Of a stretch of 64,000 nt of DNA, positions 2,094 through 2,147 are shown one piece after another. The number at the start of each line of letters is the position of its first letter. The stretch's first letter is position 1. Source of the stretch: Escherichia phage SHEFM2K. A program made the position numbers and the translations under genes. Below the pieces are notes generated by a model. It did not search any database, was not told the DNA's origin, and saw nothing but the letters and a program-made list of their open reading frames with translations. Location of the stretch: the sequence record PQ390715.1, one strand, 5' to 3'.

Positions 2094-2147
2094 TTTTATT
2101 TCTCTCTCTTTGTTAGGAGGGGAACCATTCCCCCCTTGATGTAAACT

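Follow-up and report, generated by a model that had tools for sequence, protein, structure and literature searches.

The question of what a short GC-rich hairpin is doing at the head of one early gene after another is raised by a 64,000-nucleotide stretch of Escherichia phage SHEFM2K (sequence record PQ390715.1; this whole stretch is called the window hereafter), and most directly by its positions 2117-2136, where a hairpin that reads AGGGGGGAATGGTTCCCCTC on the minus strand lies 11 nt past a TATAAT hexamer and 43 nt ahead of an ATG. The initial annotation had seen in such hairpins either a shield of the mRNA 5' end against decay or a target of a phage factor. Our analysis points instead to a hairpin that is the predicted transcribed part of a repeated cassette of promoter, hairpin and ribosome-binding site (RBS), and whose helix is kept by selection whatever its sequence. 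We tentatively read it, with somewhat less than an even chance of being right, as a sequence-independent mRNA stability or punctuation element within a portable, recombinogenic early-expression cassette.

Read along the minus strand from 2175 to 2091, the copy in question consists of TTGACA, 16 nt, TATAAT, AGTTT, ACATCAAG, GGGGGAATGGTTCCCCTCC, TAACAAAGAGAGAGAAATAAAA and the ATG. The same order recurs in a unit of about 85 bp: an A/T-rich tract, a -35 hexamer, 16-18 nt, TATAAT, 4-5 nt, a Y-A-U start motif (Y, pyrimidine), a leader of 4-6 nt, the hairpin, an A-rich spacer with a Shine-Dalgarno (SD) sequence, and the ATG. Copies were found by a hairpin scan and then with a covariance model made from them (R1), searched with its filters off; 17 were obtained, all on the minus strand, 16 of them between 2.1 and 14.5 kb and one with its hairpin at 44660-44680, which agrees with the earlier count of more than 15 copies in the first 14 kb and a further one near 44650-44690. 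They score 41-79 bits in this search; below them, from 27.7 bits down, come hairpin-less promoters. The promoters themselves have TTGACA or TTGCAA, a spacer of 16-18 nt and TATAAT, match the sigma-70 consensus at 10-12 of 12 positions and have A-rich tracts upstream. The hairpin begins 8-14 nt past the -10 hexamer, inside the 5' untranslated region (UTR), so that it does stand within a few nucleotides of the predicted +1, as had been claimed.

Chance does not produce such an arrangement readily: the minus strand of 1-16.5 kb holds 26 G-rich hairpin loci, and at 17 of these a -10-like hexamer lies 7-22 nt upstream; the corresponding values in 100 dinucleotide shuffles are 1.18 and 0.06. The octamer ACATC(A/G)AG occurs 15 times in the window (3.9 expected), 11 of these on the minus strand at 2.1-14.4 kb. 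The order of octamer, hairpin and SD given by the initial annotation holds on the minus strand, its motif being the reverse complement of the given sequence because the genes of 1-16 kb lie on that strand; the exact octamer is present in only 9 of the 17 copies and just its inner A-T is invariant among them. The invariant A-T fits a start of the form Y(-1) A(+1) U(+2) at the 7th-8th nt past the -10, as predicted from general rules of start choice in E. coli. The 17 copies are as follows, the 5' end of each hairpin being the higher coordinate of its range.

Cassette 1, 2091..2175, minus strand: -35 TTGACA at 2175, TATAAT, ACATCAAG, hairpin 2117-2136, SD, ATG 2093 of a 107-aa open reading frame (ORF); 67.1 bits.
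Cassette 2, 3406..3485, minus strand: TTGACA at 3485, TATAAT, ACATGAAG, hairpin 3426-3445 (GGGGAGAA/TTCTCCCC), ATG 3408; 66 bits.
Cassette 3, 3679..3756, minus strand: TTGCAT at 3756, TATAGT, ACATCAAG, hairpin 3699-3717 (AGGGGAA/TTCCCCT, 5-nt loop), ATG 3681; 44.4 bits.
Cassette 4, 5788..5869, minus strand: TTGACA at 5869, TATAAT, ACATCAAG, hairpin 5811-5829, ATG 5790; 74.4 bits.
Cassette 5, 6224..6305, minus strand: TTGCAA at 6305, TATAAT, ACATCGAG, hairpin 6246-6264 (AGGGGAAA/TTTCCCCT), ATG 6226; 66.1 bits.
Cassette 6, 6812..6893, minus strand: TTGCAA at 6893, TATAAT, TTCATAG, hairpin 6833-6854, ATG 6814; 66.9 bits.
Cassette 7, 7041..7122, minus strand: TTGCAA at 7122, TATAAT, ACATGAAG, hairpin 7063-7082, ATG 7043; 71.5 bits.
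Cassette 8, 8567..8647, minus strand: TTGCAA at 8647, TATAAT, ACATCAAG, hairpin 8588-8607, ATG 8569 of a Cys-rich 47-aa protein; 70.6 bits.
Cassette 9, 8881..8966, minus strand: TTGCAC at 8966, TATAAT, ACATCGAG, hairpin 8905-8926 (two G·U pairs), ATG 8883; 65.3 bits.
Cassette 10, 10434..10515, minus strand: TTGCAA at 10515, TATAAT, ACATCGCA, hairpin 10456-10474, ATG 10436; 69.1 bits.
Cassette 11, 10755..10832, minus strand: TTGCTA at 10832, TATAAT, TTTTGCAT, hairpin 10777-10796 (only 8 nt past the -10), ATG 10757; 54.4 bits.
Cassette 12, 11219..11299, minus strand: TTGCAA at 11299, TATAAT, ACATCAAG, hairpin 11240-11259, ATG 11221; 78.7 bits.
Cassette 13, 11882..11964, minus strand: TTGCAA at 11964, TATAAT, ATATCGAG, hairpin 11904-11924 (GGCGGGGA/TCCCCGCT), ATG 11884; 64.3 bits.
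Cassette 14, 13243..13325, minus strand: TTGCAA at 13325, TATAAT, ACATCGAG, hairpin 13267-13283 (GCGGGAA/TTCCCGC, loop CAC), ATG 13245; 62.7 bits.
Cassette 15, 13923..14003, minus strand: TTGCAT at 14003, TATAAT, CTATCAGG, hairpin 13944-13964 (GGTGGGGAA/TTCCCCACT), ATG 13925; 57.7 bits.
Cassette 16, 14378..14463, minus strand: TTGCAC at 14463, TATAAT, ACATCGAG, hairpin 14404-14422 (one G·U pair), ATG 14380; 58.4 bits.
Cassette 17, isolated, 44640..44718, minus strand: TTGACA at 44718, TATAAT, TTATCAAG, hairpin 44660-44680 (GGGGATGA/TCATCCCT), ATG 44642 of a 184-aa ORF; 40.9 bits.

The hairpin loop AUGG of cassettes 8 and 12 (minus strand, 8569-8599 and 11221-11251) contains an AUG in frame with the gene and no stop codon lies between, so that ORF callers can extend either gene upstream by 10 codons, as far as the hairpin; the proper SD belongs to the downstream AUG and not to that of the loop.

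Is the helix itself the conserved feature? In all 17 UTRs the hairpin is the minimum-energy fold (-10.6 to -15.8 kcal/mol), with a GC-rich stem of 7-9 bp in an inverted repeat of 17-22 nt overall. The spacer downstream of it is A/G-rich and predicted to be unpaired, most of the 17 minimum-energy folds leave the SD unpaired, and partition-function folding from starts at the 6th-8th nt past the -10 leaves an unpaired 5' leader of about 4 nt (median; range 0-6). That the structure is kept while its sequence varies had been noticed in the initial annotation, and a covariation check bears this out: among 84 further R1 copies from seven loci of six phages (121Q, Ecwhy_1, UB, RaK2, Phapecoctavirus nepoznato and Vequintavirinae A73), 92% of the alignment cells are paired and compensatory changes are found in 8 of 8 pairs, the covariation score was reached in none of 500 shuffles, and the signal collapses when the 3' partner is slid by 1-3 columns. 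At orthologous sites, set by the downstream coding sequence alone, the stem AGGGGGAG/TTCCCCCT of cassette 10 corresponds to AGGGGAAA/TTTCCCCT in Ecwhy_1 through compensatory G-C to A-U changes, the G·U pair of cassette 16 is a G-C pair at the same place in UB and Ecwhy_1, and several cassettes have a 121Q version with a wholly different stem. RaK2 uses the stems GGGGATACA/TGTATCCC and GGGAATGAA/TTCATTCCC after the same leader, ACATCAAA, and nepoznato the stems GGGGCG/CGCCCC and GGGCGGCA/TGCCGCTC; neither loops nor upper stems are conserved (ATGG, CGG, CAC, TAG and ACATC; ATACA/TGTAT in RaK2). Read on the sense strand, the interior non-Watson-Crick positions are G·T in 15 cases and A·C in 3 (p = 0.0075, the events not being independent), and a sense-strand RNA helix is therefore favoured; a looser, strand-symmetric wobble count allowing helix extension through mismatches gave 22 G·T and 15 A·C (p = 0.32), and the sense and antisense folding energies of the 17 UTRs, which differ little overall, leave RNA versus DNA undecided. 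These comparisons show a helix kept by selection as a sense-strand structure, regardless of its own sequence and loop.

The surroundings of the hairpin are mobile. Over positions 1500-5500 the window is 91-97.5% identical to the Asteriusvirus jumbo coliphages vB_EcoM_CRJP21, SP27, UB, 121Q and PBECO4, and one of its cassettes is 100% identical to its counterpart in phAPEC6; by these similarities the cassette-bearing phage is an Asteriusvirus-type jumbo coliphage (121Q/PBECO4/phAPEC6 group) and not T4-like. In relatives with known genome ends, the equivalent region lies within or adjoins a direct terminal repeat of about 21 kb. The 17 downstream proteins (47-184 aa) are unrelated save one paralogous pair, and the repeat is thus not a by-product of gene duplication. 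Orthologous genes in related phages are headed by differing cassette variants, and the hairpin-less window gene starting at 2454 has a 121Q orthologue with the hairpin. Colinear blocks shared with 121Q, Ecwhy_1 and UB end at cassette edges (junctions at window 2087/2187, 3493-3495, 6903, 8897-8926, 10523, 10796, 11299-11306, 11973 and 13323), cassette 1 is the exact overlap of two flanking blocks, and the same architecture recurs with different stems in RaK2, nepoznato and A73. On this comparative evidence, the cassette is shown to head unrelated small genes, to have been exchanged, gained and lost before orthologues, and to sit at insertion/deletion (indel) junctions.

We also observed that the whole of cassette 8 (window 8567-8647) and the first part of the Cys-rich gene behind it (MKTCQCGKKSIT...) are found in the 142-kb Vequintavirinae Escherichia phage A73 (locus L002, 3000-3120), which indicates that cassette-plus-gene units have probably been exchanged horizontally across phage families. 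A scan of IMG/VR for TATAAT-N5-ACATCRAGRGG yielded 21 stretches. The model was run on 18 of them (three pieces of one 348,532-bp contig were omitted) and found real cassettes in only three of these 18, so the element seems to be confined to a few enterobacterial phage groups. The hairpin is not described in the genome papers on CBB, rV5, phAPEC6 and fEgEco12; predicted RpoD-like promoters are given in the first two, and promoters go unmentioned in the last two.

A related arrangement is known from T4-like phages, namely the promoter-early stem-loop (PeSL) cassettes of RB49/phi1, PST/T4 and nt-1/KVP40 (Arbiol et al. 2010, PMC2839356; Comeau et al. 2014, PMC4122927). These, too, are short and intergenic, and join an A/T-rich tract to a near-consensus sigma-70 early promoter, a G-run/C-run stem-loop and an SD; copies recur ahead of small ORFans in hyperplastic regions and coincide with insertion, deletion and replacement junctions among close relatives. 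The window cassettes have in common with them the promoter with its A/T-rich tract, the stable G-run/C-run stem and the association with ORFans and indel junctions, but not a stem-loop placed upstream of, within or over the promoter. In 26 upstream regions of RB49, any stem-loop that comes with a promoter either overlies the -10 or occupies the stretch from -35 to -10, and none stands past the start; it precedes the transcript of its own cassette and can terminate the upstream gene, whereas the window hairpin lies in the 5' UTR and lacks a U-tail. A search of the RB49 ORFan block with R1 found no cassette match (best 15.4 bits). The early-promoter leaders of RB49 (locus L029, RB49 114-132 kb) nevertheless have the start motif CATC(A/G)A(A/G)AC in common with the window promoters, which may reflect either optimisation of the initial transcribed sequence for the RNA polymerase of E. 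coli or a past exchange of cassettes. On sequence grounds, then, the window cassette is a PeSL-like unit, but one with a stem-loop that would be transcribed, given the predicted start.

The classical PeSL layout is better fitted by eight other elements of the window, terminators with an embedded -35, than by the cassettes. These composites, AAAGGGTTGAC-TTCG-GTCAGCCCTTT-GCTATAAT on the minus strand (11-38, 2731-2758, 6407-6434, 40194-40221, 41916-41941, 42839-42868, 47838-47865 and 50726-50751), combine a UUCG-type loop and a U-tail with a TTGAC(T) -35 in the 5' arm and loop, GCTATAAT following at the proper spacing; by this composition they are terminator-promoters, and RaK2 has the same composite element (locus L006, 2566-2591).

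It is equally useful to state what the cassette hairpin is not. A U-tract is absent after all 17 hairpins, none of them was flagged by a terminator scan and their 8-nt tails hold 0-3 T; among the promoter-linked hairpins, 83 of 85 have no more than three T in this tail, and the hairpins without an upstream -10 form a distinct class of U-tailed terminators. To judge from these tails, the hairpin is shown not to be an intrinsic terminator. It resembles such terminators, and the intercistronic 3' stabilisers of repetitive extragenic palindrome (REP) type, in being a stable GC-rich stem between tandem genes, and the GGCGGG/CCCGCC-type terminator hairpins of the region lie at the same distance from the next ATG; it differs in having no U-tract and in standing past the next promoter's start, not ahead of that promoter. 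Two such GGCGGG(G)A...TCCCGCC hairpins, on the minus strand at 1238-1256 and 11606-11625, end in T-rich tails, lack a recognisable -10, stand 39-40 nt ahead of an ATG and look like terminator-plus-RBS versions of the cassette module, or decayed cassettes. Rfam 15 gave no match at gathering thresholds in the 64 kb and, with E <= 1 over 1-16.5 kb, nothing that falls on a cassette, and a tRNA/tmRNA scan gave no match either. An RNase III site is ruled out by stems of only 7-9 bp, which are too short for this enzyme, and a DNA-hairpin promoter of the N4 type by the adjoining upstream consensus sigma-70 promoter and by the unconserved loops; moreover, the phage groups with the cassette are not known to carry a virion RNA polymerase. 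Riboswitch-like sequestration of the SD was rejected, there being no consistent alternative helix and the SD being mostly unpaired, and a longer helix, with AUC paired to GAU or GGU past the stem, is possible at 8607, 11259 and 6854 and is not general.

What function remains? The stability or punctuation role that we tentatively prefer would work as follows. Tandem cassettes have no terminators between them, so that a hairpin would be found at two kinds of place, close to the 5' end of the mRNA that its own promoter starts and in the 3' part of the read-through RNA from upstream, there directly ahead of the A/U-rich RBS region. Once the flanking A/U-rich RNA had been processed, it would impede decay that is exonucleolytic or end-dependent. 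The hairpin would further provide each shuffled gene with the same 5'-UTR/RBS context, by which early expression would be both raised and standardised, and at the DNA level the repeated cassettes would offer homology for shuffling early ORFans.

Several points weigh against this role. The parts of 3' barrier and of insulation ascribed to the hairpin are purely inferential, and an effect of protection at the 5' end is doubtful, since a leader with a median of 4 nt should suffice for RppH and RNase E and a stem-loop can be bypassed. The alignment used for covariation had been fitted to R1, the aligned sequences are interrelated and the wobble events are not independent; for Asteriusvirus, RaK2, rV5 and Phapecoctavirus phages, no transcription-start data turned up in the literature searched; and the constant distance from hairpin to ATG could stem from common descent of the cassette instead of constraint. 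The initial annotation, moreover, went too far in placing the hairpin on most or nearly every early mRNA: a promoter scan of the minus strand of 1-16.5 kb found about 16-17 other strong sigma-70-like promoters, roughly half of all, without it. Some of these have the start motif followed directly by an SD (-35 at 2515, 12648, 8406 and 5558), from which it follows that the ACATCAA-type start motif is separable from the hairpin, and others enter longer non-coding leaders (2630, 12766, 4764 and 9802; 10866 on the plus strand). In 121Q the orthologue of the cassette 9 gene has a hairpin-less leader, which shows that the hairpin can be lost; together with the hairpin-less promoters nearby, this implies that the hairpin is dispensable.

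The alternatives differ in where they place the action of the hairpin. It might cap the very 5' end of the mRNA, shutting out RppH and the 5'-monophosphate sensor of RNase E, and so stabilise early mRNAs as the leaders of ompA, papA and T7 gene 10 do for theirs. The stabilising hairpins of these leaders begin at the 5' end or no more than 1-2 nt from it. In comparison with them (references in PMC3997798), the likeness is a GC-rich hairpin near the mRNA 5' end with an SD downstream, which would act by structure and not by sequence, and the difference is the predicted unpaired leader of the cassettes, which should still admit both RppH and RNase E. Some points favour a cap: the hairpin begins 8-14 nt past the -10 and is thus near the 5' end, with one or more of the plausible starts only 0-2 unpaired 5' nt are predicted in four copies, and the invariant U predicted at +2 is a pyrimidine, disfavoured there by RppH (PMC8833179). 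Yet the predicted unpaired leader has a median of 4-5 nt and at least 3 nt in most copies, when at least 2 unpaired nt are needed by RppH and RNase E and at least 3 are preferred (PMC8833179), a scanning RNase E readily gets past a simple stem-loop (PMC9943677), and hairpin-less cassettes with the same start motif exist alongside the others. A plain cap, as the initial annotation had it, is on these model-based grounds not favoured unless the start lies nearer the stem than predicted, and we hold it to be unlikely. The hairpin could otherwise form a translation module with the RBS, its helix, ending about 17-22 nt before the AUG, marking the 5' edge of the 30S site and keeping the SD open for any gene. 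The distance from hairpin start to ATG, 36-43 nt in the window copies, falls within 34-44 nt (mode 38) for 84 of the 85 promoter-linked hairpins from seven sequence sets in spite of hairpin lengths of 15-22 nt, the promoter-less GGCGGG...CCCGCC hairpins at 1238-1256 and 11606-11625 keep an equal 39-40 nt, and the A/G-rich spacer is predicted to be unpaired; but the A-rich leaders of hairpin-less cassettes are equally open, with nothing obvious to insulate, and the spacing was perhaps inherited and not selected, so that we give this module a distinctly low probability. An attenuator or terminator damping read-through from upstream early promoters, as proposed for PeSL stem-loops, is very improbable: the RB49 stem-loop did cut downstream lacZ about as strongly as rrnB T1, and no other terminators separate the tandem promoters here, but the missing U-tracts, the position downstream of the cassette's own start, where the hairpin would end its own transcript, and the separate class of U-tailed true terminators in the region all speak against it.

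If the repeat acted only as DNA, as a recombination hot spot or a PeSL-type cruciform, possibly bound by a DNA protein specific for structure or sequence, its presence in the transcript would be incidental. Such a role would agree with the indel junctions at cassette edges, with the flanking blocks that overlap on a cassette and with the swapping of cassette variants between orthologous genes, and GGGG...CCCC stems have been proposed as recombination targets by the PeSL authors. It sits poorly with the sense-strand excess of interior G·T over A·C and with arms that conserve their pairing and not their sequence; furthermore, homologous recombination needs the roughly 85 bp of similarity alone and no inverted repeat, and junctions between genes are expected anyhow through selection for viable recombinants. 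We accordingly attach little credence to a purely DNA-level role. There is, finally, the idea of a tag for an RNA-binding factor of phage or host, serving selective protection, a timed shut-off of early mRNA, or a modification of RNA polymerase in the manner of nut or put sites. The conserved leader followed by a hairpin recalls the boxA-boxB order of lambda nut and HK022 put, where a short conserved sequence and then a small hairpin also stand near the start of early transcripts; the element is limited to early-type promoters and common to several large coliphage groups; and a bound protein would obstruct RNase E effectively. The cassettes, however, have no boxA-like sequence (their leader is ACATCAAG-like), there is one element per gene and not per operon, each gene having its own promoter and few terminators to override, the leader motif is also found without the hairpin and in RB49, there is no match to an Rfam family, and no N-like factor is known for them. 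The variable loops and upper stems, together with the occurrence of the cassette in unrelated phage groups, disfavour a sequence-specific form of the recognition by a phage factor that the initial annotation had offered as its other option, and the tag appears improbable to us. A broader form of this idea, speculative and of low likelihood in our view, is that the AUC(A/G)AG leader and G-rich helix mark early mRNAs in several unrelated groups of large virulent coliphages, namely Asteriusvirus, Alcyoneusvirus, Phapecoctavirus and Vequintavirinae, are read by shape by a host or conserved phage factor, privilege early messages during destruction of host mRNA or time their shut-off, and spread horizontally with the cassette.

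In practical terms, 17 units of early transcription and translation can be delimited in the window by means of the cassette, and R1 is a compact model with which to find it in relatives, the jumbo phages of the 121Q/RaK2 group having hundreds of uncharacterised early genes. The PeSL idea of regulatory cassettes that double as recombination modules is carried beyond T4-like phages, here with the stem-loop inside the message. If the hairpin measurably raises or standardises expression, E. coli would gain a portable 5' UTR that is ready for use, and also a natural test case of a stem-loop a few nucleotides from the 5' end set against RppH/RNase E-dependent decay; and if it has no effect on RNA, it would be evidence for structure-directed recombination in the plasticity of phage genomes.

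Some further signals of the window deserve mention. The palindrome AGTACT occurs 277 times in the 64 kb (22.3 +/- 4.3 expected, about 12-fold) and is the most frequent hexamer of the window, above all A/T-rich ones; it is often found as CAGTACTG, is denser in 1-24 kb (for instance at 14510-14554) and is present twice per early promoter (AAAGTACTTGCAA, TAGTACTGTATAAT), and no explanation for its excess was found in the literature searched. Just upstream of the cassette 16 promoter, at 14500-14610 on the minus strand, 3-4 tandem copies of AGTACTGAATAAT with a 13-nt period stand beside two copies of GAAAGATAGTTCCCCT; near the strand switch at 15-16 kb, this array may be a regulatory or origin-like region. 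The motif (A/T)A(G/A)CCCAYMGGGTGC stands behind several promoters, within about 20-30 nt of the start, with no SD or ORF directly behind it (about 2690-2720, 4695-4725, 6365-6395 and 12920-12950 on the minus strand; 10915-10945 on the plus strand), and these sites, which have no Rfam or tRNA match, are candidates for small non-coding RNAs or long leaders. Lastly, 2574-2630 and 12709-12766 on the minus strand are near-identical units of a promoter and a structured leader of about 75 nt (ACATCAGGACGGGGAACGAAA...AAAAACTCCCCTGAT, about -16 kcal/mol) that lead straight to another consensus promoter, this one lacking the hairpin (-35 at 2515 and 12648), so that two promoters stand in tandem with a conserved RNA element between them.

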